From NCBI GenBank assembly GCA_003344405.1, contig NOWV01000127.1:62001-126000 (forward strand): DNA of 64,000 bases, written 5' to 3'. Of the stretch, positions 26,311 to 57,292 are shown in pieces. The notes under the pieces were generated by a model that was not told the DNA's origin, ran no database searches, and saw nothing but the letters and a program-made list of their open reading frames with translations. This DNA is from Trichoplax sp. H2 (Eukaryota). Made by a program: the position numbers and the translations under genes. How positions within the stretch are numbered: the first letter of the stretch is position 1; each line of letters begins with the position of its first letter.

Positions 26311-29300
26311 TAAATTGATCCTACAAGGTTTCTCAAATTTGTCTACATCATAAAATCAATCTTTTCTTTATGATTCAAATTATGATTGCATGGATCCGGT
26401 ATACAGGACAAGAAATGAAAAGAATAGCTCCGTTCTAGTTCATGAATAGCATTTTATTTAACTTTCCATTCTCTTTGAATTTATTCGGTAATAAGTATTC
26501 CTCACTTATAGGCTGTTGCTGAACATAAAGCATCGAATAATAGTCGAGATTGCCTTAATGCGGTGGATCAAACTTTTGACGTAAACAAATTCATCTTCCT
26601 TTTCAATAATTAGTCATCATCATAGTCAATACATGATCAGCTTAATAAATAATATAATTAGTCATCATAATAGTCAACACATGAGAAAAGAAAATATTGT
26701 TTTATTAATCAAAATATGGCGCTATTCAAGCAGTTAATCGATCTTGTAGAATAATAAAGAAGAGATTGATTCTCCCCATTGGCTAGATAGACCAGTCGCA
26801 TGGATGCTTAAACTTCTAGCAGATGGCTATGGCTTATCTTTAGACCGCGATGATACAGATATTGAAAAAGAAGATTAACGTTTATATACACTACTATCCA
26901 TTTCGTTCTCTAATATTAGCCCTCCACTCAAATATTCCTTAGTCTCACGTTTACATCGATCACCATTTCTTGAATAAACTAATCTCTCGATCACGATGAT
27001 GCGTATACTGCCATTTCTCCGGTTGCTTGGTATTTTCCTTCGACCTAAATATTTCTTAGTCTTATGTTTACATCAATCACCATTCCTAAAACGATGAATT
27101 CATTTGTAGATCAAGACGATGAGATAGAGATGAAACACATCTATCAATACGACTATCCATTTAATTTCTTGATATTAGCCCTCAACCCAAATATTGATTA
27201 ATTAATTCTGTTTCCCTGATTTTGACTCCTTGCCTAAATATTTTTATTTGATCTTATGTTGACATTAGTCACCATTTCAAAAAGGCTGATGATGACATGG
27301 AGTGTATTGATTCCGCCATCATTACGCCAGCAGGTGTAATGGATTGATTCAATTGAAGACCAATCGATGTTGTCATTTTAACTTTTTCTTTATTCACTCA
27401 ATACCGTGCCTTCCAACTAGCAGTCAATATTATTATTAATCAATTAACTCAATCTTGTTGATAGTAGGTTGAAAATATCTGATACCATCTTTATCCTTTA
27501 TTCTATTATCACCGAGACATCTTATCAGCATCATGAACAATGCTATCTATTCTTATCATTTGTCTTATCTAATTTCGACATCACATGATCCAACGATCAT
27601 AGATAAAATTGATTCAGATTGCGGTTAAACTAGAGTATACAGTATGTTCAAATAAGGCCGATAGACAAGTAAATAGACTGCAAACCATACTGTATAGAGT
27701 TAATAATAATCAACTGATATTGAACAACCCAATCGATTTTTATTAAAATGGATAGGCTGATGAGCATCGGCATGAGCTGTGGGCCATCGTTAGTGACTGC
27801 TGAAAAAATAATTTTGTTACTTTCTCTTTCTTCTTTCAAAGAAGAACAGACATGGTACTGTACAATCGAAAGTGATCCAGAATATCCATTTCATGGCTTG
27901 AGATAAAAAATACGTATTCACTTATTAATCTGTATCACCTATACTGTAATTATCCAAATCATTGAAACGCTCCATTGGCTATTCTTGGAATCTCCGGCAC
28001 GGCAATCCTCTTTGCATTATTAAATAGGCATTGGCCACGCACTACGTTAGTCGATAATTATAATAGACAATAACACATTGCTGGTCAATTGTGGAGCAAT
28101 TTGCTATCAAAAAAATTATCAAAACATCGCATAGTAACGTCGTCGATTCTAGACTGCGTTAAGGCTAAGGTTGAGATTTATTGAGTGTCATAGGCATGCC
28201 AAGAGACTCCTGGCTTATTGTGCTCTTGGGCAAGATTTAAGCTAGGCTACTACTGTAGAATACAATCGATTTTCATTGCTTCTCGTATAATTAATAACAA
28301 GCATCTGTGGAAAAAATTTTAGGGGTATAAATAACGAAAAATAAGAAATCGATCAGATACTTAAAAATTAACCATTTAAAATCCATATCTATCCGTGATC
28401 GTTCTTTCAGCGATTGCCAAGGCTGCTCCACCTGTCATAAAACCCATGGCTAGAAATATTTCATGACATATTTCTAGAATCTCCCATCATAGTTATAATA
28501 GTATTCAATACTTTCATTAAATATACATGTATGCTCTCTTACAACGTCATGTCTTGTATAAGGAAATTATTATGTTAATAAGAAACAGCTTTACTTGTCG
28601 ATCATGATTGAAATGAAATTTCTTAATCTATTCACTGATCATATCATATAAGTGACTTGGCACCATTCAATCACGGTATCACAATGACATCATCTGTTTT
28701 AGAGCTCAAAACAAGGAAGTAGTAAAGTTGCTTTCCATCGTAATAATCAAAAATTATCTTGAACATCCATCGACTACTTAGAATAATACCTATTCGCTAA
28801 TAGAACATGATTAAATCATGGCGTCATAATATCATCATCCATTTAGAGCTTAAATCAGGGAAGTAAAATTAAGTTCCAAGGTTATAAACAAGGATAATCA
28901 TGAACGTATTTATTAATTGGAATAAAAGCTATTCAATGTCGATACTAACAATGGTTGTCCTACTTATAATTGCAAGAATACTCGGAAACTGCTTTTAAAC
29001 ATTCTTGGAATCGCCATCCTAGTCATGACACTTTTAAATATTAAAGATGCATTCTCCGTCGCTCAGATTATACATTGCATTCATCCTTTGCTAACACAAA
29101 ATATATTATTTGTTAATTTTGGTTAAGTTATGGAATGGCAACATGATGAGATAGAAAGAATATTTTTAATGTTATAATGACATACGGAATAGACTATCCG
29201 CCCACTAGAATGGTAATGGAATACTGTACTAGAGTGAGTGCTTAAAATTTTATCCTAATATCGATCCTTTAGAGTTGCGATGCATCATTGTGATCAGTAG

Positions 29301-31205
29301 TTGCCTACCTCGATAAATTATCAGGAAAAATGCTTCTAATTGTATGATAATACATTATATTACCTATCTATTAAAGTCGCAATTTAATATTATGCTTAGA
29401 TTTTTTATTGCTAGTTTAATCGCCAGAAGGAATACTTTTGGTGCGGTGATAGTACTGTATTTTATAGTATCTATCCATCGAGCCGCAATGCATGACCATC
29501 GATAATCTATAATTAATTACTCTTTGACCTATTCCGAGAACTCCTGTTCTAGTAATGGTACTTTTAAATATTTAATGTATTTCTTCTACGTGGTGAGAAT
29601 GATCGTGTATTATCCTAATAGATGAATAGCAAAATGATATTCCATGCAGTCCACGATCAAACCATGCTATCGTCATGAAATCAATTTTCATTCCTTTGAA
29701 CGAGTTATAAACCTCATACGCATGAATGAATAATTTTAAGGCTTAGATAATTACTAGCAAGAAATGTTTTCAACTATGAAATTTAAAAGTGATAAAATGA
29801 TGTCAGTTTATCACTGGCTACAGTAATAATAAAATATTATCCGCATGCTAACCCTGCAATTTGAAACGTTAGAATTCTGATCTAAGCTATAACGACTGTT
29901 ATATACCATGCAAGACTATGAAAGACATTTTGCTGATCGATTATATTATAATTAAACCATAGCGTAGCAATGCAATAGAATAGCTATTGGCTACTTGTCA
30001 AGATAATATTACGAAACAATTCTTGAAGGGTCATGATAATATAGCGTTCATATACTCGTGCTATCCGATATTGCTAGAGACACAATCTTATTTAAGAGGA
30101 TGAAAGGTTATCCCATTCCGAATTAGTAAGATAATCTAAAATACTTCTTGGTCTGAAACTAGAATTTCTATCCTAGTTATAAAAGACAGTTTCAACGGCA
30201 TTTTTAGATAGTATAGTCAGTTATGCATAATACTAATTAAAATGGCAGTTGCATTCCTAATGATGCAGGTAATTTGAAACGTTTCATCTCCTATTCTTGG
30301 AATTTCTATCCAAGTAATAACGATATGAAATACTTTCTTTATTACATACCTAATTTTGTCCATGATGCGCAACAGTAATGAGCTCGAAACAAGGACAGAT
30401 TACCTAAAAGTTCATAATCAACCTATTATGCCACTATTCAATCATCTTCCACTGAATTTAACATCATTTAATAATGATTAGTCTTTGCTTGATTAGTGCA
30501 CGTAAATAAGAGTAATAATAGCCTAAAATAAAACTTGTTCAATCTTTATTAACGCTAGTCTGCTCTTATCGATGGTGTGTGGGCAATGCAAATGCTCCAT
30601 AAACTCTTTCTGGATTCCAATCATAGCTATCCAGTTTTAAATGGATACTCCCTCATGCGGTATTATATATCGCGTTAATAGATAGTAAACAGGAGTCATA
30701 TTGGCACTAGCCCTTCATAGAGCTAAGTATTTGTGACCGAATTGATTTTCACTTTACTTGACAGTAGAATAAGGCATTTAAAGCCCAACGTATGCCTGTG
30801 ATAGAATGCTTTTCAGTTTACCGTAAATTCGATATCTACCTGTAGGCTAAAGTAAGCATCCCGTCGTTCACCAATCTTGAATGGCAATAGTCAATAGCCA
30901 AATAAAACCAACTTAGTTCGCTAGTAGCCTATTACTAAAGCTATGATACGGCAATTGGAAGCCAATTTATACAGTATGACGATGGTCATGATATTTATTA
31001 CGTAGAAATGAATTTCCCGCCAATGCCAATAGCGTCTCTATTAAGTAAACGAATTATCAATCATTCACTATAAACCAGTAAAACCCTTCCCTATACTTAA
31101 TCAGCTATTTCTTTGCGTAGCATTAGCTCAGAAAGTACAGGAAATAAGAAAATTTTCTCAATTTGGTTTACTGTGATGGACAATAAATTCATATAGGAAG
31201 TCATT

Positions 31206-31271
31206 TATTAAACGTATGGTATTCCAATGCTGTAAATATAATAGACCGTATTGGAATACCGTACGTTAATA
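31206..31271 (+). other. Isolated inverted repeat / ~66-nt hairpin
   Basis: Arms are aacgtatggtattccaatgc (31211-31230) and gtattggaataccgtacgtt (31248-31267), with a 17-nt loop. The two non-Watson-Crick positions are G-U pairs on the + strand. Confidence 0.85.
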
Positions 31272-32161
31272 TAGCGTAATAGCAAACTGGATATCAATAG
31301 TCATCGCTCTTACAATTTTCTACTAATTGACGTATCATATAATACTGTAGTAGGCAAGAATCACAACACACCTACAGTACCTCCAAGCTACACGAAATTT
31401 TCCAAAAGGATAATCCGCATGACTATAGCAAATTTTATTACAGTACGGTAACTTTTTACTATACAATGTAGTAAAAGCCTTAGACCAAACTGAAGAGCAG
31501 ATCAAACTTTTTATTTAAATACAAATTTATGCGCACAAGGGCACAATAAAACATGCTGTAAAACTTTCTACGTTTACTAAGTTTAATATAGTAAATTTTG
31601 ACGCTAACGTTGCCGATATCAAATAACCAATAATTAAACTTATGCAACCGTTTCTACTAATTCTATTTTGCCTACTGTATTGATGAAATAATGTACCCGA
31701 ATAGCGAGATAGACTCTAAATTTACTTGGATAAAATCATGATATCATAGATTGAATAACTATAGGCATAAAATGTTGGAAAGAAACTATGTTAGCAGTGA
31801 TATGGCAATTTCATAAACAACTGTATATAAATAGAGTTTGAAAAAAATTTGAAAACTGCTGCAGCTAAATTACAGTTGAAGTTAATTTATGAACAAGATA
31901 TTTAAAGCTCATTTTTTTGTACAAGCGATATTTAGACAACTGGTACAAGTACTATTAATAAAGTAATCATCTATTAAACTTTTCAGATAAGGGTAAAACA
32001 TTACTAGCCCCTTTACCTACATTACTGTTTACATTACAAGCGAGTACGTGTATAATGTACGAGTATGTCAGTAAAACAGAATGTTAACGATCTATATTTT
32101 ACAAGATTGACTCGTACGTAAACCATGTCTTTGCACGAGTATAGAGCCAGAAATGCTACCA

Positions 32162-35100: not shown

Positions 35101-36972
35101 GAGCAATAATAAATTAATTACCAACGTGTGTCAAAATGATAGGTATGAGTATCTCTTACTTGTAAGTTAAGCATTAATTCTGATTCTGATGGAGTATCAC
35201 TGCCATCGTCTTCTTCGTTATCATCTTGCTCTATCGTACGAATGTAACAAAGTCTAAGTGATGTCAACGTGTTTTTAAATGGCCTCAAAGAGTAATGTAT
35301 TTGAAAGAAGATTCTTCTAATCACATCTTATTTACTAACTAACATGAAATAACAGCGAGTTCAACATGACATCATACCTAAATTTTTCAAGTACTGACAG
35401 CGAACATCGCCAAAAATGAGCATATCGCAGTGGTTTAACTCGTAACGAACATGCGGCTGAAGTTGTAGCTTTCCACGACGTGATTTGTTCTTGCTATCGC
35501 AATCATACAATAGGTGCATGTCGCCAGCAATTTCGATGCATGCATGGCGTTTGGAGAGTGGTTTTACCGGAACATGCACGGTACTTTTTTTGTCGCGTCC
35601 AATATAATTTTTACCTCGGCGAATAGGAAAGATTGCTTCTTGAAATTCCTCACGCCACCGAAAGACTTTCAAGTATCCAACCTGTAAAGCATATGATGAC
35701 ATGGTTAACAGTGACTACCCTACTGCATATGCATAAGTTATAAATCAGCAAGCAAGTTGTAGCCAGAAAGCCATCATGCGCATGGTAAGATTCAGATTAA
35801 TTATTACCCTCGTTTGATTGCACTGCACAGCCTACTCTGTATCGAACTAGATTACATTACGTCCATCTACAGTCGATGCTAAAGTCACTATTCTTGCAAC
35901 TTTATACAGTAAATAACTCAGGACCAGGCCTGCTCTTGGTGCAGATTCGAGCTACTAAAAAGGTGCAATGGTGATAAATTGCGCAGGGCCACTTCAGGCC
36001 GCCATTAGCATCGTGAGCCATGAGAAATGGAGGATAAGAATCGTGGCCAAGAGTAATTCGGTTTTGTGCAGCTGTTAGCGTTGTCCAACCATGAGAAATG
36101 GATATTTTGAATCATGGCCAAAGTAGTTGGATACATTATCATTATAAAGTCATCATTTTTTGATCACTTAATTAAATGATTCATAATTATAAGCACTGCT
36201 AAATTAAGGCTATAGGCGCAGATTCGAGCTACTAAAAAGGTGAAATTGTGACGAGATGCTGCAGATCCGGTACAGCTATACTGTATACTGTATACATCTC
36301 CAGAGGTCATTTTTGGCAGTTCATCAATGATTCATCCTAAGGCTCTACAGTAGGCTACTAAAATGGTGAAATAGTGATGAAATACTTGTCGGTAAAGTCC
36401 TGCAAATTTACGCCAAGGGATAATAACAATCATGGTCCAGAGAAGTTTGCTACATTCTCAACTAGATCATTAACGTGCAGAGATCAAGTCCAATAGACAC
36501 AGTAAGAATATATTAAAGTCTAAGTCATGATTTATTTTCCACCTGGGTGCAGATTAGAGCTACTAACTGTATTGGGTGAAATGGTGATGAAGTACTGGCA
36601 AAGAGTATGATAGGTAGTGTCCAGATATTTATGCGATCTGCCAAGCTAGCATGTCAAGTCTAACGAGTATTTCTTGATGATTTTCTCATCCATGATATCG
36701 TGGTTGTGGTTTTCGATCGGTAGATGTATTGATTCTACTGACTATATATTCTACGAGCGTGATCTTAAGCTCCATTACGTCATAATACGATGAACAATAA
36801 CGGTGAAAAAGCCATGATGATTTTTCAAGAATGCAATTAAAACCTTGCAGCCCGTTCATGCGTAGGCATACCTAAAGATACTTACCGGAGTGGATGCATC
36901 CTGTGCACTCTTGACGACATCTTCTTCTTGTTGAAAGACGTCCAAGTCCAGTGGTATCGTAAAATCATCCAT
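32162..36972 (-). CDS. MDC1: Mediator of DNA damage checkpoint 1 (FHA - acidic linker - tandem BRCT)
   Basis: Exon 1 (36886-36972) encodes MDDFTIPLDLDVFQQEEDVV..STP. The FHA exon 35378-35681 encodes VGYLKVF..GKNYIGRD..LSKRHACIE..LIFGDVRCQY. Acidic exons follow (ORFs 33905..34555, 32855..33667), then tandem BRCT (KVMFTG..HLVTDKIRRTVKFLCGLSRGIPIVNTKWL..AELLLSGVLRQ). Stop at 32162. Confidence 0.93.
35937..36595. repeat. Dispersed short repeats in MDC1 intron 1
   Basis: 'gg.gcagatt.gagctactaa....ggtg.aa..gtga' occurs at ~35938, 36216, (36353) and 36546. Confidence 0.75.
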
Positions 36973-37378
36973 TGCTTTAATTGGCTTGCAACGATAACGT
37001 GTTACAATGGCAACGTGATCGCCTTTTCGAGGCTTAACAGAAAACTGGATGTAGACTGCACAAGTTGATCAAGGCGGTAGCCAATGGATGCCCTGGCAAT
37101 GATCCAATTTGCTTTGACTGCTATTATTCTCAAACAGAGGATGCAAATACTCGCTTGCACAATTGGATCAGTAGAATAACGTTAATGAAACTCTGGCACT
37201 TTCATCAATGACCAATCACAACTGATAGAAGGAAAGAAATTTCTTCTTGTTAGACCATCCTAGTTCTACAAGGCTGAAAAAGGTCGTGGAGAAGAGGAAT
37301 TTGGATCATCCTTCTCTTGCTTGGCACTCTATCAGGCTGAGCAAGGAGTTGCGCCAAAAGCAAACATGTACGAGCAGG

Positions 37379-38825
37379 TACGCTACAGTACTGTACACTG
37401 TACTGTGCAGAATAAGCTGTCATCCCTAGGGTGATTTCTGTCGTACTGATCGTGTGATACGCGTTGAAAATCGATGACACATTATTGACCAGCTGGAGTA
37501 CGTACGGTACAGTACTGTACACTGTACTGTGCAGAATAAGCTGTCATCCCTAGGGTGATTTCTGTCTTATTGATCGTGTGATACACGTTGAAAACCGATG
37601 ACACGTTATTGACCAGCTGGAGTACGTACGGTACAGTACTGTACACTGTACTGTGCAGAATAAGCTGTCATCCCTAGGGTGATTTCTGTCGTACTGATCG
37701 TGTGATACGCGTTGAAAACCGATGACACGTTATTGACCAGCTGGAGTACGTACGGTACAGTACTGTACACTGTACTGTGCAGAATAAGCTGTCATCCCTA
37801 GTGTGATTTCTGTCCTACTGATCGTGTGATACGCTTTGAAAACCGATGACACGTTATTGACCAGCTCGAGTACAGTGTAAAAGGAGATTGTACTGTAAAA
37901 ATGTAGAGTACGTTGGATTGATAAAAAGCAGAATACCGTCTTGACACCTACAGTACAGTATACAGTAACATAGATCCTGGAGTCGTACTGTACTGTACAC
38001 AGCACAGTATGCTGTGGAAATCATACAGTACTGTACACTGTACAGCATAGTACTCTACTAATCTGTACTGTAGCCCGAATTTCGACTACGGTGACAATAG
38101 TTTTGCTTAAGCTGTTGCTCAATATTCACGGGCGTACATGATATTCTATTGTCTAGTGTCTACTCAACGACTCATAAACTGGTAGATTAAGTACTATAGC
38201 GTACAGTACATTGTCTTTGTTGATGGCCCGATGAATGCGAGTCATGGCTGAAATCCACTGCGGATGGCTTTCAAAATCATATCGTGCCTACAGTACGGAA
38301 TCATGATCGCATTCTGTGAAACTGTGTGTAAAATAAATGTCGTAAAAAGCTGATATACTATACTGTAATTTACGACATATGTTTTCCACGAGCCTATACC
38401 GTACTATACTGTACAGTGTACAGTACTGTGATTTTGTGCATCGGTTTGCACTCTGGAGTCTCCATACTAGACAGACTGATAGATGGACCCTAAAATCGTT
38501 AGCTTACAGTAGACCTACTGAAACAACTGNNNNNNNNNNNNNNNNNNNNGATGACACATTATTGACCAGCTGGAGTACGTACGGTACAGTACTGTACACT
38601 GTACTGTGCAGAATAAGCTGTCATCCCTAGGGTAATTTCTGTCTTACTGATCGTGTGATACGCGTTGAAAACCGATGACACGTTATTGACCAGCTGGAGG
38701 ACGTACGGTACAGTACTGTACACTGTACTGTGCAGAATAAGCTGTCATCCCTAGAGTAATTTCTATCTTACTGATCGTGTGATACGCGTTGAAAACCGAT
38801 GACACGTTATTGACCAGCTCGAGTA
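37379..38825. repeat. Near-identical 124-bp tandem repeat (4 copies 37379-37870; 2+ copies 38550-38825), each carrying a TACAGTACTGTACACTGTACTGT block
   Basis: 'gcagaataag' occurs at 37407, 37531, 37655 and 37779 (period exactly 124) and at 38608 and 38732. Confidence 0.95.
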
Positions 38826-40130
38826 CAGTGTAAAAGCAGATTGTACTGTAAAAATGTAGAGTACTGTACAGTACGTTGGATTGATAAAAAGCAGAATACC
38901 GTCTTGACACCTACTGTACAGTATACAGTAATATAGATCCTGGAGTCGTACACAGCACAGTATGCTGTGGAAATCATACAGTACTGTACACTGTACTGTA
39001 CACTGTGCAGTAATATACAGTGTACAGTGTACAGTACAGCATAGTACTCTACTAATCTGTACTGTAGCCCGAATTTCGACTACGGTGACAATAGTTTTGC
39101 TTAAGCTGTTGCTCAATATTCACGGGCGTACATGATATTCTATTGTCTAGTGTCTACTCAACGACTCATAAACTGGTAGATTAAGTACTATAGCGTACAG
39201 TACATTGTCTTTGTTGATGGCCCGATGAATGCGAGTCATGGCTGAAATCCACTGCGGATGGCTTTCAAAATCATATCGTGCCTACAGTACGGAATCATGA
39301 TCGCATTCTGTGAAACTGTGTGTAAAATAAATGTCGTAGAAAGCTGATATACTATACTGTAATTTACGACATATGTTTTCCACGAGCTTATACCGTACTA
39401 TACTGTACTGTACAGTGTACAGTACTGTGATTTGGTGCATCGGTTTGCACTCTGGAGTCTCCATACTAGACAGACTGATAGATGGACCCTAAAATCGTTA
39501 GCCTACAGTAGACCTACTGAAACAACTGTACAGCTACCTAGTAATGATAGCAATGACAGCTAAGGCTTTCAAAATCATGTCGTGCCTATAGTAAGGGAAT
39601 CATGATCGCATTGTGTAAAACTGTGTGTAAAATTAATGTCGTAGAAAGCTGGTACACTATAGTGTAATTGACACCTTAATTTACGACATCTGTTTTCCAC
39701 GGGCCTATACCGTACTATACTGTACAGTGTACAGTACTGTGATTTTGTGCATCGGTTTGCACTCTGGAGTCTCCATACTAGACAGACTGATAGATGGACC
39801 CTAAAATCGTTAGCTTACAGTAGACCTACTGAAACAACTGCACAGCTACCTAGTAATGATAGCAATGGCAGCTAAGGCTTTCAAAACCATGTCTTGCCTA
39901 TAGTAAGGGAATCATGATCGCATTGTGTAAAACTGTGTGTAAAATTAATGTCGTAGAAAGCTGATACATTATAGTGTAATTGACACCTTAATTTGCGACA
40001 TCTGTTTTCCACGGATCGATACGGTACTGTACTATACTGCGATTTCGTGACTGTGTCACGTCTTGCTAGTGGACAGACTGACATATGGACCCCACAATCG
40101 TTAGACTATAGTAAACCTAGTGAAACAACG
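38265..40130. repeat. ~305-312 bp repeat (copies at ~38265, 39260, 39565, 39877), part of a larger ~1 kb duplication 37860-38529 / 38814-39528
   Basis: 'gctttcaaaa.cat.tc.tgccta.agta.ggaatcatgatcgcatt.tgt.aaactgtgtgtaaaat' occurs four times. 'ccagctcgagtacagtgtaaaa' occurs at 37861 and 38814. Confidence 0.92.
38530..38549. other. Assembly gap (20 N)
   Basis: Run of N between two copies of the duplicated repeat block. Confidence 1.
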
Positions 40131-40646
40131 GCATACTGGAAGTAGGCGCGTCTCCATACTGGACATACTGACGAACGGACAGGAGGAAGATTGGCTTAAA
40201 GTAGACCTACTGAAACATTAGTGCAGCTCGCTAGCAACGGTATACCGAAAAGACAAGCTCAAGACCAAGTGGACGCAAGCCAATCCATGCAGCCAATTCA
40301 AATTGACAGTTATTCTTCTCGCCAAGCTGAGGATAAAAACACTTTCTCGATCTTGGCCTTGATTGCAATGATGGAAAATCATCCAATCAACTAATGTACA
40401 GTTGTTTTCCATCATGCCCTTAGCGGAGAGACGATTGAACGATCTTGTAGGTGGTAGAAAAGCCAAGAAATTGGTCTCCGTTAATTGAATTATTGATCGA
40501 TCGAAAACAATTTAGTGGCATCGTCCTCAACATCGTTGCTGACAAGTACAACGCCAAAGCAATTTGAAATTATTGATTTCATCGACATTCGTTTCCATTT
40601 CTTCTATAATCGATACACAGATAGTTTCCAATGTAACATAATTATC

Positions 40647-48500: not shown

Positions 48501-51346
48501 AGCAGCAATTAAGATTATTCTAAACCTTGCTTAGGCGGTACCCATTATTGAATAAGGTCTATTTATATTGATGAAAATTTTACCCGAAGTTGTGATATTA
48601 AGCTTTTATAATCTTCTATTTCTTGCACTAATTTACGATGAAATGCTTCATCTTTATCCGATCTGGCAAGATTTTCCTTTAGTTTAGCTTCTCTTACGTC
48701 GAGATTACGCGATTTTTGTATAAATTGTTCTTGTGTTTCGAGTTTAATTCTGTTTCAAATTAAAAATTACCACAAGTGTCCGGTTAGTAGAGTTAATTAC
48801 ACAGTATGAAAGATTATCACTTCTTTGATAGTAACGTAAGACAGACAGTAGAATCATGCCTGGTAATATTGTCTTCCAGATCCCGCTGATATCTTTGCTC
48901 TAAATTACTGATTGAAGTTTCCTTCATTCGGATGCGCTCTTCGGCAGCTCGGGCTTTCTCACTTTCTAATTTTTGAGATCTGAATAGGCAAAACATGTTG
49001 TTAATTTTTACAAATCATTTCGTACCATGTTACAGCAACACTTTTAGGCATAGCCTATTATCTTATGTTTTATTTCCATATCTGAGTTACGTAGCTTACT
49101 GTTCGTTAAGCTCAAAACAACGCTTCAATTCCAGTTCTTTTGATCGAACCATTTCTAGTTGTTCAAGTATTGATTGGCGCTGCAAATGCAATTGGGCTTC
49201 CTTTTCTAACTCTTGATTACGAAGGTGTTGCATCGTATCTTCTTCTTTCCTTCGTAGCGCTTCCTTTTTTTGATAATAGTCTTGCTCTAGCTCATTCCTT
49301 ATGGTCTGCAATTCTTGCTGGTATTTGGTTCGTTCTTCCAGGCGCATCTTAGTAAGGGTTACATTTTCGAATCGTTCCATCTACAGTAGGATAATTATTT
49401 ATTGGTATTAGATGTTGTTCTATAGTCATGACCGATATATATTTATAAAAGTAAGACATACTTCAACTTTTGCCTGCGCGATACATCTTGTTTCTATTTC
49501 TTTTTCCATAGCAATTAATTTATCTTCCACAGAATCGTGATTCTTGTCACGGGTATGATGGCTGTCCATTACGGTTTGATCTAAAATTTGAAGTCTTTGG
49601 TCTAAATTTTAATAAACAGTAATAAGCAACAAATGTAAGCTTAAAATGGGTTGCTTAACATTAAAGTGATTCGGTTGTAATTACTTAGATGTTCTTGAGT
49701 GAGTATCGGCTGTTGATCAGTTTGACAGCTATTATCCAATCGAGGAATAGGTTTGACTTGATTTTGGTTCAAGAAGTAATCTAACAATACTATTAAAAGA
49801 CTTTGTTCCGCGGTGGTTGTTAAAGCAATGGCTTTACGATAGAACGGATCATTTGGTTGAAACTTCATAAAATCGATGATATCGGGTATGTTGTATACCT
49901 ACATGAGTGTTGTATGAAATTTATAAGATTTTCAATAGCCAATTTTTGATCCTTCTATTAACTTTCAGTAATTGAAACGCTATATCAGACAATTACTCTA
50001 TGCAATCGCATATGATTGTAGGTAGAACGAGTGCATTAGGTAGGAAAATTTCCACCTTAATTACTGGCTTTTATATGATAAATCATGTCAATAGATCTGA
50101 TTAAGCTTCTATTGTTAATATTACGTGACTTTTCTTATTGCAGTAATCCATTACCTTATCTTCTGATAAATTGCATTCTGGCAGGTAGACCGATAAAGCG
50201 TAATCGTATCGATACGTCTTTAAATGGTTGCAAATGATGCTATTGCCCACATCCAAATTTAATTGATTGATAGTTTGTTTACTATGATTGATGTTGGATG
50301 TTAATACGCCTTGACGTTGCTGAAGTTCGTCAACCATTTTCTTGCGCAATTGAGACTGGTAAAGAAAACATTTGAGAGTCAATTTTCATATTTAAGGTCG
50401 GTCATTTTATGATCTATTCACCGGCTAAAACTAGAATATACGTTGTAGTAAGTATGTCGCTGCAAAGCTAAACTATTGTCTAATCTACAAAACCTTTCCT
50501 AGTCATGGTAGAGATGAGATGAATGGTAGCATTTTTGTTGGATTGATTCATCCATTGGATCATTTGGATATTATTATTGTACTATACTCACTCACTGAGG
50601 GATATGGATACTGTACAGTAGAGAGATTGATCCATGGCATATGAGTTATTATCGACTGGAATGGGATGCACTAAGATAGTAAAGGGAGTTGAGCCTGTGA
50701 AGGAAGTTTTACTGTACAGTGTCGATTGTACAATCTATACGCGTCTAGCAGGATACATTGAATAACTTGGATAGTTAGGGTTGAGCGCATTCTAACAGTA
50801 GGTTATGACTAATCCTGGAGTATTTCATTTATTTGTTGTAGCTGCATTGCTTTGTGTTGCCGTATCGTATCCAAATGATGTTCTAGGAGAGTGAAAAGAA
50901 GGTGAAGGACTTTATGACGTTCCCTTGTTCAATGATGGGACTTTAGTTGAATTCTCCAAACTGTTTACAATGTAGAGTACAGTAAATGAGTTGTATTGGT
51001 TTGATGTTCAAAGTAGTATTCCAATTGCACTAGGTAATCAATGGAATAAGTGAGCTACTGTACTTTTGAATGACGATTGAAATAGTCTGTGATGGTTTCT
51101 ACAGATGTACTGTTGGTCGATGGGTTCTCCTTTTGTTATATCGAGGCCATTTAAGTTGTGGTACTCCATCTCATCGCTAAACTACGCTATAGTGCCTGCC
51201 TATGGGAATGACGATGGTAAAGTCCAGGATGAAAACATTGCTTACGTTACCTTCAAAGTCGTCAATATCCCACGCTGGCGAAAGTTATGAAATAACTTGA
51301 GTTTCAATTCTTCTTCCGATAGAGTTGGTTCTTCCAAGTCCACCAT
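45543..51346 (-). CDS. OFD1: Oral-facial-digital syndrome 1 centriolar/basal-body protein (LisH + coiled coils)
   Basis: Exon 1 encodes MVDLEEPTLSEEELKLKLFHNFRQRGILTTLK. Exon 2 encodes SQLRKKMVDEL..GNSIICNHLKTYRYDYALSVYLPECNL (LisH). Multiple coiled-coil exons follow (46031-49380), including DPVMLHYMELVK. The C-terminus is LSDDEAFDW* at 45543. Confidence 0.92.
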
Positions 51347-54316
51347 GATTTAAGCTTGTAATGGCGATGACTAATCTCAGTAGAATGAGTGCAATAAGTC
51401 AAGACAGAATGGTTGAAATCAATCCAAGATTGAACACGATCACCAAGGTGATAATCAAGCTTGCGGTTGTGCAACTTGGTGGTACTGGTACCTGTCCCTT
51501 TCCGTCATGGATCGCTGCTGACTGCTGAAGATTTTCCACTAGGATCACGTCGATCCACGTCTAGTTGGGTCTAGTAATCAATGGATTCCTTCTTGTCAAT
51601 GTATCAATCTCCATAGACGTCGATGGCTGACTGACTATTTCTCTATTTGGTCAGCAGCTTGGAGAATAATTTGAAATTTGAATTTTGAGCTGCAGCAAAT
51701 TGGCTGGAGGCGAGGCTACAGTACTGTACTACAGTATAGCGCTGGAATGGAGAGAATGGAAATTGCTGTTTTCTACTGTGGTACTGAGTGCGCCAACGGC
51801 AGGTCTGTTAACGTATCGCGCGGGAAAATACTGTAGTAGAAGTGGGGTGGACTACAGTACGTTGTACTGTAGTTCCCACCCTGACGGAGGATCCGTACGT
51901 CCGCACTGCCATGTCGCGAGCGCCATTCCACAGTACTGTACACTACAGTACATTGTACAGTGGTGTACCTAGTGTACAGTACAGTGTACAGTACTGTCCA
52001 ATGGTGTGCATCGAATTGCTGTCCATCCACCTTCCATTTTCTCTATAGTAAAAGCTGTTCAAATTGAAACTTCTTCCAACGGGAACCCTGCAGATTGAAT
52101 CGTCCAAACATGACTAAGTCTGAGTGTACTCTACCATAGAGTTGACTTGATGGCGTGTAGTGTACGTCCGTATCGTCAATCTGTCATGTACAGTACAGTG
52201 CAGTACTAGACCGTGTACAGTACAATGTACTGTACATCCTTCATCCAAACATGACTGGGTGTACTGTACAGTGTACAGTGTACAGTACTGTACCATAGAG
52301 TTGACTTGATGGAGGGTAGTGTACAACTGTACAGTACGTACTGTACTGTACGCCCGTATCGTCGATCTATCATCTACAGTGCAGTTCTGGACCGTCTACA
52401 CTGTCCATCCCCTCTACACTCTACTGTATTTTCCCTATAGTAAAAGCTGTTCAAATTGAAATTGCTTCCAATGGGAACCCTGCAGATCCACTCTTCCAAA
52501 CATGACTGAGTGTACTCTACCATAAAGTTGAAAGGATGGAGGGTAGTGTACGTCCGTATCGTCAATCTGTCATCTACAGTGCATTACTAGATCAGTACTG
52601 TACTGTACAGTGATGTACTGTACATCCCTTCATCCAAACATGACTGCGTGTACAGTACTGTACAGTACCATAGACTTGACTTGATGGAGGGTAGTGTACT
52701 GTACGTACGTCCGTATCGTCGATCTGTCATCTACAGTGCAGTTCTGGACCGTCTACAGTACACTGTCCATCCCCTCTACAGTACACTCTACTGTATTTTC
52801 CCTACAGTACTGTATAGTAAAAGCTGTTCAAATTGAAACTGCTTCCAATGGGAACCCTGCCGATCCTATCCTCCAAACATGACTGAGTGTACAGTACTGT
52901 ACCATACACTTCCCTCTATGGAGTGGAGAATCCATCCGTATTGTCCATCTGTCACCCACAGTGCCGTCCTCGACGGTGTACAGTACAGTGTACAGTCGGC
53001 CTATGTTAGTACTGTAGCTAGTAGGCAAAAACAACGGTTCACAGTCCCAGTATAGCAGTCAACACCAACGGCCAAGTAAGTCATCAAGTCTGCAAGAAAC
53101 AGCTTGCCATCGTCAACAACATCTCTTGCTCTCCATACTTTGTTAACTCTATCCATGGAATCTTAGTGGTATGTAGAGAATGTATGCCTGCTTGCAAAGG
53201 AATGATGTACGATGAATCATGACTAGACTACCTCACTTTTTTGTTGCACTATACTATCATGCAATGCCGCTATCCTAGACAGTTAGTTGTCGTCATCATG
53301 CATCAGCGTCTTTTCGACTTGTTGTATTTGAAATGACGCTGGAGCTAGTGCATGCTTTCCAATGGCATGCCCATGACTCTACTACAACTTTCAAATAAAA
53401 CTAATAAGTTGATGATGGTACGCAGTGATAGAATAAATAGTCAGTCAGATGTACAATATTAGCATGCTTGACTATCGGTCAAGTGGAAGGAAAGTCATCA
53501 AAAACTGACATTGCTTTATGCCTCCTCGATTGCCCAATGCTATTCGTTGTGCATGCAATCAAGAAAGGATCCATGTCCTAATGCAATGGATTAGGAGAAC
53601 GTGACACTAGGCTTCAATTGCTGTAGATAGAGTGGAAAGTATTAGCTTTCAATCGCTAGGATCCGATGTCATAGACGGCTACTCGAAAATTGAGAAAATT
53701 TTCGGAAACTATACTCACAACGAAATCTTACTAGGATCTCATCGCTACAAGCAAACGGGCAATCTTAGCAGTATTGATCCTAACGTCCTCTTAGGATAAC
53801 GGCGTACCACTACAGGACATTACAAGTGGCATACGTATGCCAGCGAAATAGACGCACACTTGTGATGTTGCAATCATTAAAAGATAAATCTTTTAGACAT
53901 GGACTGCTTAGAACTATTCTTATCAAACAATTGTGCTAAGAGATGAAATGCCATGTTGAAATATTGTCTCCCCTTCTAGCTTAATACTGTACTTGCTTGC
54001 TACCGTATTGGATAGATCGCTTTTCCACTGTACAACGATAAATCATCAACGACGTGTATACTGTACGGAGACGTACAAATAACGACGCTAGTTTTGTATG
54101 TAGACGTAGTGAGAATGGCGTTAAAGGATAAAATTGAACATGGTGAAATGTTGTCCACTTTACAGCTTGCTTTCTATTCTATTCGATATATTACTCTTCC
54201 ACAACGAAAATCATAAATTCTATCTAGTAATAGAAGAATCCATCAACAACGCTGATTAGTCCAATTGTTGAACGCTAAGTCAACACTTTATATTTTCTCT
54301 TGCAGAGCACCAAATA
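51347..54316. promoter_or_regulatory. Divergent OFD1/NUP54 promoter interval
   Basis: Lies between the ATG of OFD1 (-, 51346) and the ATG of NUP54 (+, 54317). An acceptor ttgcag at 54300-54305 suggests a 5'-UTR intron in NUP54. Confidence 0.6.
51717..52996. repeat. Compound tandem repeat (~120-150 bp subunits, ~380-400 bp higher-order unit) riddled with TA-CAG-TA/TA-CTG-TA blocks
   Basis: 'tccaaacatgact' occurs at ~52103, 52243, 52495, 52633 and 52872. 'tagtaaaagctgttcaaattgaaa' occurs at ~52046, 52438 and 52815. Confidence 0.92.
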
Positions 54317-57292
54317 ATGTTTTCACAATCTCTTAGTGGAAATAATACTGGTACATTCAAATTTGGTGCTGGTGGCAACACTGCTACCACACAAGCCAAT
54401 CCGTTAGGTGGTGGTGGTGGCGGCGGCTTTTCCTTCGGAGCATCAAATACCCAAAACGCTGCTAATAAAAGCTTTACCGGATTTGGCAACACAACCACCC
54501 AAGCTGGTAATTTCACAGGTTTGGGTGCCACCGCAGCAGCGTCCGGTGGTTTTGGTGGATTTGGCACCAATACAACCTCACAAGCAGCCGGATTTGCAGG
54601 ATTTGGCAAGACAGCAACCACACAATCAACAGGATTTGGTGGACTCGGTACAAATACTTCTACACCATCGACAGGCTTTGGTAATTTCGGTACAAATACG
54701 TCCACGCAATCGGCTGGCTTTGGAGGATTCGGTACCAATCCAACGACGCAATCTGCAGGATTTAGCACTTTCGGTAAGCCAACGGCCACGCAATCCGCTG
54801 CCTTTGGGGGATTTGGTAATACATCTACTTCACAACCAGCTGGATTTGGTGGCTTTGGTACTACATCAGCGCAACCCACTGGCTTCGGTGGATTCAATAT
54901 GTCAACAACATCCAAACCAACTTTCGGCACAGCAACCACTCAATCGAGCGGATTTGGTAGTTTTGGTACAACAGCACCTCAAGCAATTGGTTTCGGTGGA
55001 TTTGGTAGCCTTGGAGGCAGTTCTGCCTTACAAACAGGATTTGGACCATCGACCGCGACTACCTCTCTATTCGGTAAGCCGTCTGGTAATATAAGTGGAT
55101 TTGGAGCTGGAACCAGTGCGCTTAGCTTTGGCGGTCAAACTACTGCAAGTAATTTACTTGGTGGCCAAGGATTAGCTCCTGGTGTTGGTCAACAAGGTTA
55201 GTTTTCACTGAGCTTATTTCACATTTTAATTATCTTGAAAGACGGTAATTTATTCTGTGCAGTTTAGGAAATAAGTAGTAAGAGTGCGTCTGAATTCATT
55301 ATTGATCATCTATTTGTCAATAGCTGTTCAGGGTGGTGTTCCTGAGAATCTTCTTTTAGTTGCTAGTTGTACCTGTAATATTTTTGGTGATGAAAGGGAT
55401 CTAACACTAGCAAAGTTTAATCAACTTCAAGCTATCTGGGGGCTCGGAAAAGGCTTTTATAATAGACACGCGCCTCCAATTGAGTACCAACGATCGAATC
55501 CTTTGTGTATATTTAAGGTTAGAATCGCTGTGACAATTATATAACTATCAAATACAGAATGTTTTATCAAGATCCTCTTCAGGGTAATTCATAATTTCAA
55601 TGATCCATATTGTTCTTCTTAGACCGTATGCTTTAGTAGCCTGCCTGCAGTAAAAGAATCTGATGGACTTGTTGTTCTTAAACTCAATAAGAAAGAAGCA
55701 GATGTAAATGCTCAAAAACAAAACATTTTAGATGCACTTTATACTGCTTTAGGAAAAAGACCGTTATTATCGGTGCGATTTGTTGATGTTAGAGCTATTG
55801 GCGACAATGCGTAAGTAGATGGTATATTGACCCTATTTCGCGTAGTAGATTGACTTGCTACCAGTGGACTTCATGTTGTAGACTAGTTTAAATTGAAGGG
55901 GATTTTATTTTTAGATCCGAAATGACATTTTATATTGAAGAAAGAGCGCTCAATGGGGTTCGAAAGCGTTACCTTGCTCGTGAGATTATTGATCATTTGT
56001 CTAGAAATAATTTTTCTGTAAGTTTCATCAATATAAACTTGGTCTACGCGTATACGAGATGTACTTTTCATAGATGGTAGCAATATTGGCAAATGATAAT
56101 GATCTAGGTAATATAGAATGCATATTTTTCTGAATCATAGAGCCAAATAGCCAGCTTAGGAATAGTGGATATTTATCCAAAACCGATCATTACTCCACAA
56201 CAAGTTAGAGATGTCCTAGAAAATCCTCCGTCAGGTTCTAATATCGGTATAGATTTCAATTTTTTAATTACGGCAATTGCTAACATTCTAGTATTGTGTA
56301 GGTATTAATCCAGCTGTGTGGAAACAAGCTATTGAGAATAATCCTGATTCCGCAAAGTTAGTCACTTAACTCTTTGGCGCATTAGTTAAGGAGAAAGATT
56401 GACATTATGATACAAGGCATTCTTGTTAAAAGTATTTACCCATTGTTTCCTACGCTATTCTAGTTTAATTCCTATACCAGTAGTTGGATTTGAAGAATTA
56501 TGTGCTAGATTTAAGGCTCAACAAGAAGAAACAAAACGCCAAAATTCTGCTTGTGAAGTAAGACCTATTATTGTGGTAAAATAATTCAATCCTAATAATA
56601 TGCTTATTTTATCCGAAATATTTTGACAGCAAATATCGGATGAGTTGGTTAAATTACAGCAAAAGCAAGCTGTAGTTAGTGCTAGAGTAAATCAGTATCG
56701 ACGTAAACACATGGAACTATGCCATCGTGTGTTAAAGATCATTAGTAAACAAGAGTTAATTAATAAGAGTGGATTTTCGTTAACTGAAGAAGAAGATCAA
56801 TTCCGATTTAGACTTCAGGGAATGGAAACTGATTTCAATGCCCCAAATCAGTTTAAGGTTATTTAGCATTTTATTATATCCATGCAAATTAACTGCCTAG
56901 CTGTATATGGGATACACCAAGCGAGTGATAAAAAGGAATTGATTTTTATCCTTATTGATTGCAGAACCGGCTGTATGAGTTAATGTCTCAAATCAGTATG
57001 AAGAACACAACTTCATCAGGACCACAAAATTTAGAATTTAAGGCAGATGAAGAGACATTGCATACCATTAAAAGAGTTAGTTATACTCGTACACTATTTT
57101 TGATAAAAATAAGATTAAAATAGATTATAATAAGGTTTTTATTAATTGATTTTGTACACGTATTTCCATTATACATAGTATCTAACAAACCAACAGAAAG
57201 CTATAACTGCCTTAGTTGAAACATTTAAAGAAGATCTAGAGGACATTAACGTTATTGAACAAGGCTGGTCAGGTTCTTCAAATAAAAGCTGA
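54317..57292 (+). CDS. NUP54: Nucleoporin Nup54 (FG-repeat N-terminus, alpha/beta and helical domains)
   Basis: An FG-repeat exon (54317-55197) is followed by IFGDERDLTLAKFNQLQAIWGLGKGFY..NPLCIFK, NPPSGINPAVWKQAIENNPDSAKLIPIPVVGFEEL and YRRKHMELCHRVLKII..NAPNQFK. Stop TGA at 57290-57292. Confidence 0.95.

Follow-up and report, generated by a model that had tools for sequence, protein, structure and literature searches.

The closest described relative of the element studied here is the simple repeat (ACAGT)n of Trichoplax adhaerens. In the accessible parts of their genome-wide survey, Wang, Zhang, Meyer and Bao (2010, Biol Direct 5:18; PMC2871265) report that pentanucleotides make up 61.8% of 11,697 microsatellites, that ACAGT accounts for 78% of the 7,233 pentanucleotide repeats, and that 54% of the repeats have a gene within 1 kb downstream of them, a share that rises to 85% at 5 kb. 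These authors proposed a transcription-factor binding site and called the pattern "intriguing." A repeating ACAGT motif for Trichoplax was also recovered by a neural network from Micro-C maps in a 2025 preprint (bioRxiv 10.1101/2024.11.14.623548). Why one pentamer dominates the simple repeats of this animal, and why it does so upstream of genes, has been open since 2010. Here we describe the same motif in a stretch of 64,000 nucleotides from Trichoplax sp. H2 (assembly GCA_003344405.1, contig NOWV01000127.1, positions 62,001 to 126,000 of the forward strand), which we call the window and number from its first letter. The element in question is the 7-bp word TACAGTA or TACTGTA (TACWGTA), which is crowded into two intergenic fields, the second of them between an OFD1-like gene and a NUP54-like gene.

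Two further systems invite comparison. TACAGTA and TACTGTA are the canonical excision footprints of the Sleeping Beauty transposon, which are listed beside six non-canonical ones in the accessible part of a recent preprint (bioRxiv 10.1101/659086). The original prediction made for this locus had rightly named them as such, and it read field 2 as a stack of Tc1/mariner-type scars in the OFD1/NUP54 promoter; it made no mention of field 1 and had no knowledge of the (ACAGT)n repeat published in 2010. The units at this locus share with Sleeping Beauty footprints the identical 7-bp sequence and the ambiguous central A or T, and their TA-anchored blocks may likewise represent net gains of 5 bp. Sleeping Beauty footprints, however, are single scars at the donor sites of a known element, whereas the units described here form chains, and the window holds no element, matching ends, or transposase to go with them. 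The second system is the Mutator terminal-repeat motif of placozoan promoter hubs, likewise a short promoter motif for which descent from a transposon has been proposed (Kim et al. 2025, Nature; PMC12221973). That motif has a different sequence and is carried by recognizable elements with intact terminal repeats, and ACAGT is absent from the available portions of the article. The word "footprint" does not occur in Wang et al. 2010, no link between the ACAGT repeat and excision footprints was found in the literature searched, and the 14-mer GTACAGTACTGTAC gave no match there.

The window contains 139 TACWGTA units, compared with 10.56 ± 3.59 (maximum 21) in 100 dinucleotide-preserving shuffles; the observation on which the original prediction was built is confirmed and lies far beyond chance. 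Most of the units (85 of 139) fall inside the two fields, which together span 4.1 kb, or 6.4% of the window (Table 1). Within the fields, four words dominate the spacing between successive TA dinucleotides: CTG (43 of 410 intervals, compared with 29 of 5,455 in the rest of the window), CAG (42 of 410 vs 25 of 5,455), CAGTG (11 of 410 vs 1 of 5,455), and CACTG (8 of 410 vs 0 of 5,455). The words TACTA, TAGTA, and TACGTA are also 1.8 to 3.5 times commoner inside the fields than outside. Unit centers are nearly equally A (67) and T (72). Single units make up 94 of the 116 tracts, and the longest chains reach three strict units, or about five blocks if the 7-bp variants are counted. The true unit is a 7-bp palindrome, TAC[A/T]GTA, which is chained as TA(C[A/T]GTA)n and accompanied by a 7-bp variant, CAGTG/CACTG.

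As an object, field 2 is already known: it is a local concentration of the promoter-associated (ACAGT)n repeat published for the whole genome. The likeness extends to the motif, which is the same on either strand, to the position upstream of genes, and to the genome-wide abundance. Public short-read contigs reflect this abundance, with a summed depth of 4,688 over the tracts vs about 35 beside them. The contigs landing on the tracts numbered about 1,700 to 1,840 per run in three runs and 559 in a low-depth fourth (X13), and their loose ends are unrelated. The description by Wang et al. differs in that, according to the accessible text, only perfect repeats longer than 12 bp were counted, a definition that catches four loci of the 139 units here. 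Most units in the window are single or stand in chains of mixed orientation, which are better written TA(C[A/T]GTA)n.

Field 2 is built of A and B subunits in a higher-order tandem arrangement, and the strings that the original prediction quoted from it are all present. In the alignment of the three A subunits, A3 carries three stretches that A2 lacks, CAGTA, CAGTA, and CAGTACTGTA, every one of them directly behind a TA, as had been claimed. The further claim that none of these blocks copies its flanking bases holds strictly, although the first two give CTACA-GTACA, in which four of five bases repeat the neighboring five. The first block, at 52756, is equally readable as a TACA...TACA deletion in A2. 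By contrast, CAGTACTGTA is missing from both A1 and A2, so that a gain in A3 is the simplest reading; the 12-mer TACAGTACTGTA occurs near this block at 52281, 52651, and 52890. Among the five B subunits, tract length varies at every tract site. At the site after CATGACTGAG, the five copies show four states: B1 and B3 read GTGTA-CTCTA-CCATA and hold no unit, B5 has two units, B4 has three, and B2 has about five blocks (CTGTA-CAGTGTA-CAGTGTA-CAGTA-CTGTA). The second example offered by the prediction, which contrasted these B copies, thus holds as well. The extra unit of B1 near 52190 is missing from B2, B3, B4, and B5, indicating a gain that is compatible with slippage. The proposed stacking of hits, in turn, is partly a matter of tandem duplication of whole tract-carrying subunits of 120 to 390 bp and not of independent events.

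A contig from one independent public run matches 51730-52059 with one mismatch and no gap. Among the short-read contigs listed, ends fall at tracts (51722/51730, 52059, and 52813), and the three A3 blocks consequently lack independent contig confirmation. One contig of run X7 spans 51730-51994 with 5 gap letters, and one of run X2 spans 52554-52725 with 12; the small contig indels listed inside field 2 were not used, as many other loci pile up there.

Across eight pairwise alignments of paralogous copies from both fields, we recorded 29 indel rows. Nine of these fit the pattern TA+(C[A/T]GTA)n and, as one event was seen twice, represent eight unique events; with the 10-bp block at 52805, the unique events of this form total nine. 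Exact tandem duplication accounts for two of the nine. Of the other seven, two are four-of-five copies, and a deletion between TAC...TAC repeats is a possible reading for all but one. The remaining 20 of the 29 rows are small indels outside tracts or complex changes of 9, 12, 17, and 41 bp inside them. GTAC is touched by 16 of the 29 rows. The short-allele site is TA followed by C in eight of nine cases, and the long allele therefore holds TAC...TAC direct repeats 5 or 10 bp apart that could be used for deletion. Majority of copies assigns a gain in only two events (52805 and 52190), the latter being an exact tandem duplication, and most of the apparent insertions are equally readable as deletions.

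Field 1 carries the same motif in an unrelated repeat. Two of its copies, 37597-38520 and 38550-39528, each about 930 bp long, are 98% identical; of 914 aligned columns, 898 match and 16 do not, and all four of their indels (10, 10, 41, and 5 bp) fall in tracts, which occupy 17-19% of the length. The 41-bp insertion forms an inverted repeat with itself; this self-pairing is a signature of strand switching, and the insertion is no stack of canonical footprints. Elsewhere in the pair, a central base is flipped with the length unchanged, TACAGTACAGTA at 37949 corresponding to TACTGTACAGTA at 38912. A gap of 20 N at 38521-38540 separates the two copies, which are arranged head to tail. They could be a true segmental duplication or two haplotypes assembled in tandem, in which case the four tract indels would be allelic differences; published heterozygosity in Trichoplax is about 1%. 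A 124-bp tandem repeat is present in four copies at 37378-37873 and in a further 2.2 copies beyond the gap (38550-38826), 94-97% identical and free of indels. Every copy of it opens with the same TACAGTACTGTACACTGTACTG tract, showing that tracts have been multiplied passively with their host repeat. In the tail repeat, two sites (38289 and 38505 vs 39588, 39900, and 40108) read TACAGTA in the younger copies and TATAGTA in the older ones. A further tail-repeat copy has TAAAGTA. In field 2, the three A subunits all share a conserved TATAGTA. The difference between TATAGTA and TACAGTA may mean that units decay by C-to-T substitution or that sites evolve towards the motif.

Outside the fields, TACAGTA/TACTGTA is the most over-represented of 7,548 7-mers, with 54 occurrences compared with 8.75 expected under a first-order model or 18.7 under a third-order model. 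These dispersed single units are thus about sixfold enriched and occur at about 0.9 per kb over the window outside the fields. Their flanks show a weak excess of T at position -2 and a deficit of T at -1 (chi-squared 10.3 and 11.1, 3 degrees of freedom, eight positions tested). One-mismatch neighbors of the 7-mer number 279 vs 256.4 expected, a ratio of 1.09; this test has low power, and since we estimate that a neutral steady state would give about 1.16, the halo is too weak to discriminate. No empty-site paralogs of single units were found outside the fields, as unique DNA would lead one to expect. Thirteen single units stand in about 4 kb of AT-rich DNA at 27638-31679, outside any tandem repeat and in a region with no open reading frame (ORF) of at least 90 amino acids, and smaller clusters occur at 36279-36352 and 50609-50716.

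In our view, the 5-bp steps most likely stem from instability intrinsic to a short palindromic repeat, an explanation (hereafter, endogenous instability) to which we give about an even chance of being correct. According to this mechanism, which we infer, cellular replication and repair working on a short self-complementary sequence would add, remove, and flip units. Slippage would produce exact tandem duplications of 5, 7, 10, and 12 bp, and blocks of 5n bp would be lost through slippage or end-joining between TAC...TAC repeats. Units in opposite orientation, inverted insertions, and central A/T flips would come from strand switching or from a neighboring tract serving as template, and unequal exchange would then multiply whole tract-carrying subunits. 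Field 2 itself forms part of a minisatellite-like array that separates two divergently transcribed genes, OFD1-like and NUP54. The exact tandem duplications, the deletions explicable by repeats, the 41-bp inverted insertion, and the A/T flip all argue that ordinary repeat instability acts here, and the explanation is favored also because published censuses report few transposable elements and none that is active. Template switching or snap-back synthesis at quasi-palindromes would make inverted copies, convert direct repeats to perfect palindromes, and flip the central base at constant length. The 41-bp insertion, the excess of TACAGTACTGTA, and the flip between 37949 and 38912 resemble its products; this process offers no explanation for isolated single units, however, and it is not known to build the dominant repeat of a genome.

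Several observations weigh against endogenous instability as a full account. An ordinary slippage microsatellite would be expected to hold homogeneous units in one orientation, yet only 5 of 17 independent neighbor pairs are alike and only two of the nine TA-form indels are exact duplications. The raw neighbor pairs comprise 14 AT, 4 TA, 4 TT, and 1 AA; after paralogous copies were collapsed by hand, about 8 AT, 4 TA, and 5 same-orientation pairs (AA and TT pooled) remain where 1:1:2 would be expected. Plain slippage cannot produce opposite-orientation units, yet 12 of these 17 pairs differ. Perfect period-5 runs of at least 13 bp are found at just four places in the window, two of them in field 2 as head-to-tail ACAGT/ACTGT runs (52338-52351 and 52595-52608), and slippage is usually frequent only in tracts longer than two or three units. 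The bases added in the 10-bp gain at 52805 do not copy their neighbors, and the evidence for strand switching consists of one insertion and one flip. Instability also leaves the origin of the first single units at scattered sites unexplained: slippage cannot seed single units, so their excess in unique DNA counts against it, as does the finding that beyond position -2 their flanks are ordinary TA-site background.

It is on these points that the reading of the units as excision footprints has its strength. If a Tc1/mariner-type element had CAG...CTG ends and cut with a 3-nt stagger, each cycle would add C[A/T]GTA at a TA and thereby create a new TA target. The unit is identical to the canonical Sleeping Beauty footprint, seven of the nine unique TA-form indels are not exact tandem duplications, and the gain at 52805 is non-duplicative. 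Ambiguous repair predicts the near-equal A and T centers, and the mixed orientation of neighbors (8 AT, 4 TA, 5 same), the sixfold enrichment of dispersed singles without GTAC extension and with background-like flanks, and the enrichment in the fields of three non-canonical Sleeping Beauty footprints (TACTA, TAGTA, and TACGTA) all agree with it. Tc1 and Sleeping Beauty prefer YA-TA-TR targets, which the weak -2/-1 bias of the single units resembles. The element itself, on the other hand, is missing from the window. When all TACAG...CTGTA pairs 80 to 8,000 bp apart in the window were compared over 30 nt at their ends, no element with matching ends emerged, the eight candidates being tract-to-tract matches. 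There is no enrichment of TACAGT when the next base is G, C, or T (8 observed/9.4 expected, 16/9.5, and 15/14.6, respectively), and hence there are no relic element ends to set against 139 "footprints," and none of the 60 ORF translations of the window matched a transposase family in a Pfam scan. The CAG-ended, TA-flanked element with a transposase that the original prediction called for was therefore not found within these 64 kb. The Trichoplax lineage is also reported to be almost free of Tc1/mariner DNA: the available portions of PMC2871265 list 11 degenerate mariner/Tc1 fragments (9,098 bp), none of which has terminal repeats, three intact ORFs, single-copy and likewise lacking such repeats, one family of miniature inverted-repeat transposable elements of about 20 copies, a transposable-element content of 0.13%, and no active element. 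A published census puts DNA transposons at 0.5-0.6% of the Trichoplax genome, mostly Ginger. In addition, repeated insertion within a few bases would demand extreme self-targeting, the frequent 7-bp unit CAGTG/CACTG (19 in the fields) has no counterpart in the set of eight footprints listed for Sleeping Beauty, neither the A/T flip nor the inverted insertion of 41 bp is a footprint, and 20 of the 29 indel rows have another form. A promoter bias is likewise not known to be typical of Tc1/mariner elements.

We therefore consider a footprint origin of the units unlikely. The formal match and the TA anchoring advanced by the original prediction stand, the absence of an element, ends, and transposase from the window speaks against it, and on balance we can neither uphold nor dismiss its scar-field interpretation. 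A hybrid, in which ancient footprints seeded units that slippage and exchange later remodeled, is more plausible, and it is chiefly as the source of the first single units that a footprint origin stays alive. In its widest form, the idea would make the dominant placozoan repeat the fossil record of an extinct or undetected Sleeping-Beauty-like element, tens of thousands of TA-site scars concentrated in open promoter DNA and remodeled by slippage, the elements having been purged from a mostly clonal animal; we hold this scenario to be improbable. Alternatively, TAC[A/T]GTA may be a protein-binding site, a dimeric-factor or initiator-like promoter or chromatin element kept by selection near gene starts, which would be compatible with either mechanism. 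The palindrome is sharply delimited, its one-mismatch neighbors being unenriched, although that missing halo has low power (1.09 vs about 1.16 neutral). The two fields, like the clusters at 36279-36352 and 50609-50716, are found between genes or a short way upstream of them, and the published upstream bias (54% within 1 kb), the site proposed in the accessible text of PMC2871265, and the recovery of ACAGT from Micro-C maps in the part of bioRxiv 10.1101/2024.11.14.623548 available point the same way. Against this stand the single units, which are scattered at about 0.9 per kb throughout the window, 13 of them in the ORF-poor 27.6-31.7 kb, and a tract length that differs at every site among paralogous subunits and looks unconstrained. 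We also know of no protein that binds TAC[A/T]GTA, and we consider selection for binding even less probable than a footprint origin. Finally, another cut-and-paste family could have left a 4-bp GTAC target duplication with one leftover base (GTAC-W-GTAC). Tracts in the fields are mostly bounded by G and C (both in 31 of 64), and Ginger elements are the commonest DNA transposons reported from Trichoplax. Outside the fields, however, G and C flank only 2 of 52 tracts, TA is the sole shared anchor, and Ginger target duplications are CCGG-like, not GTAC. Inspection by eye of six short-allele contexts (52756, 52779, 52805, 38864, 37988, and 52892) found three without GTAC (CTA-CAC twice and CTA-TAG), which disfavors this origin and makes it highly improbable.

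The window adds to the published picture that the usual microsatellite definition misses most copies of the repeat, that its unit is a 7-bp palindrome, that single units stand scattered in unique DNA, and that neighboring units are mostly opposite in orientation. Through the footprint idea, the ACAGT question becomes sharply testable with placozoan assemblies that already exist. Were the idea true, extinct mobile DNA would be linked to promoter sequence in an early-branching animal, in what would be the first case of excision footprints, rather than elements, forming the main simple repeat of a genome and seeding promoters. If it is false, the repeat would be a good natural example of instability driven by palindromes, or of a DNA-binding factor yet to be discovered.

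Table 1 Coordinates of the repeat fields, their subunits and tract features, and neighboring genes in the 64-kb window.
Feature	Position	Strand	Remarks
Field 1	37378-40133 (37.37-40.13 kb)		Intergenic repeat array; same motif, about 48 units; repeat unrelated to field 2
41-bp insertion	38993-39033	+	Between two 98%-identical copies; inverted repeat with itself
Field 2	51717-53016 (51.70-53.02 kb)		Intergenic; about 36 TACWGTA units; higher-order tandem repeat [A1 B1 B2][A2 B3 B4][A3 B5]
Subunits A2, A3	52375-52495, 52732-52872	+	From alignment of three A subunits
Subunits B (five)	52096-52236, 52237-52388, 52487-52624, 52625-52745, 52864-52996	+	From alignment
Tandem duplication, period 12	51971-51994		Exact; field 2
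Extra unit in B1	52190-52194	+	Exact tandem duplication; one of several equivalent gap placements
(TGTACAG)x3.1 array, period 7	52265-52286	+	Perfect
Tandem duplication, period 10	52649-52668		Exact; field 2
Extra CAGTA in A3	52756-52760	+	No exact duplication; 4/5 copy of neighboring bases
Second extra CAGTA in A3	52779-52783	+	Behind TA; CTA-CAC context as at 52756; unpolarized
Extra CAGTACTGTA in A3	52805-52814	+	At CCCTA-TAGTA site
LisH_2 ORF, exon-like	50104-50385	-	LisH_2 motif, E 1.8e-13; would fit an OFD1-like gene; reads away from field 2
NUP54-like gene	54272-56863	+	Nup54 domain pieces 56411-56581 and 56627-56863 (E 1.5e-18); transcribed away from field 2
Repeat-rich ORF of NUP54-like gene	54272-55198	+	Taken as FG-repeat part; no Pfam match
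FHA/BRCT gene		-	Field 1 lies upstream

The gene names given by the original prediction are reasonable in light of the LisH_2 and Nup54 domains. By ORF positions, field 2 lies within 1-5 kb upstream of a gene, and its designation as a promoter, in the prediction as here, is suggested by this position only. A 496-amino acid ORF at 119-1606 shares 99% identity with the Trichoplax adhaerens protein TRIADDRAFT_60096, which assigns the window to the organism of the published repeat. The repeat-rich ORF of the NUP54-like gene contains a 42-bp tandem repeat at 54618-54739 (2.9 copies, 76% identity). Outside the fields, the next most over-represented 7-mers under the first-order model are CATCATC/GATGATG and ATGATGA, probably from coding trinucleotide repeats. 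In field 1, TACAGTACTGTGAT (38419-38432, also at 39418 and 39730) equals what we take to be the first 14 bases of animal miR-101; the string is just two units with flank, and the match is therefore probably a coincidence.

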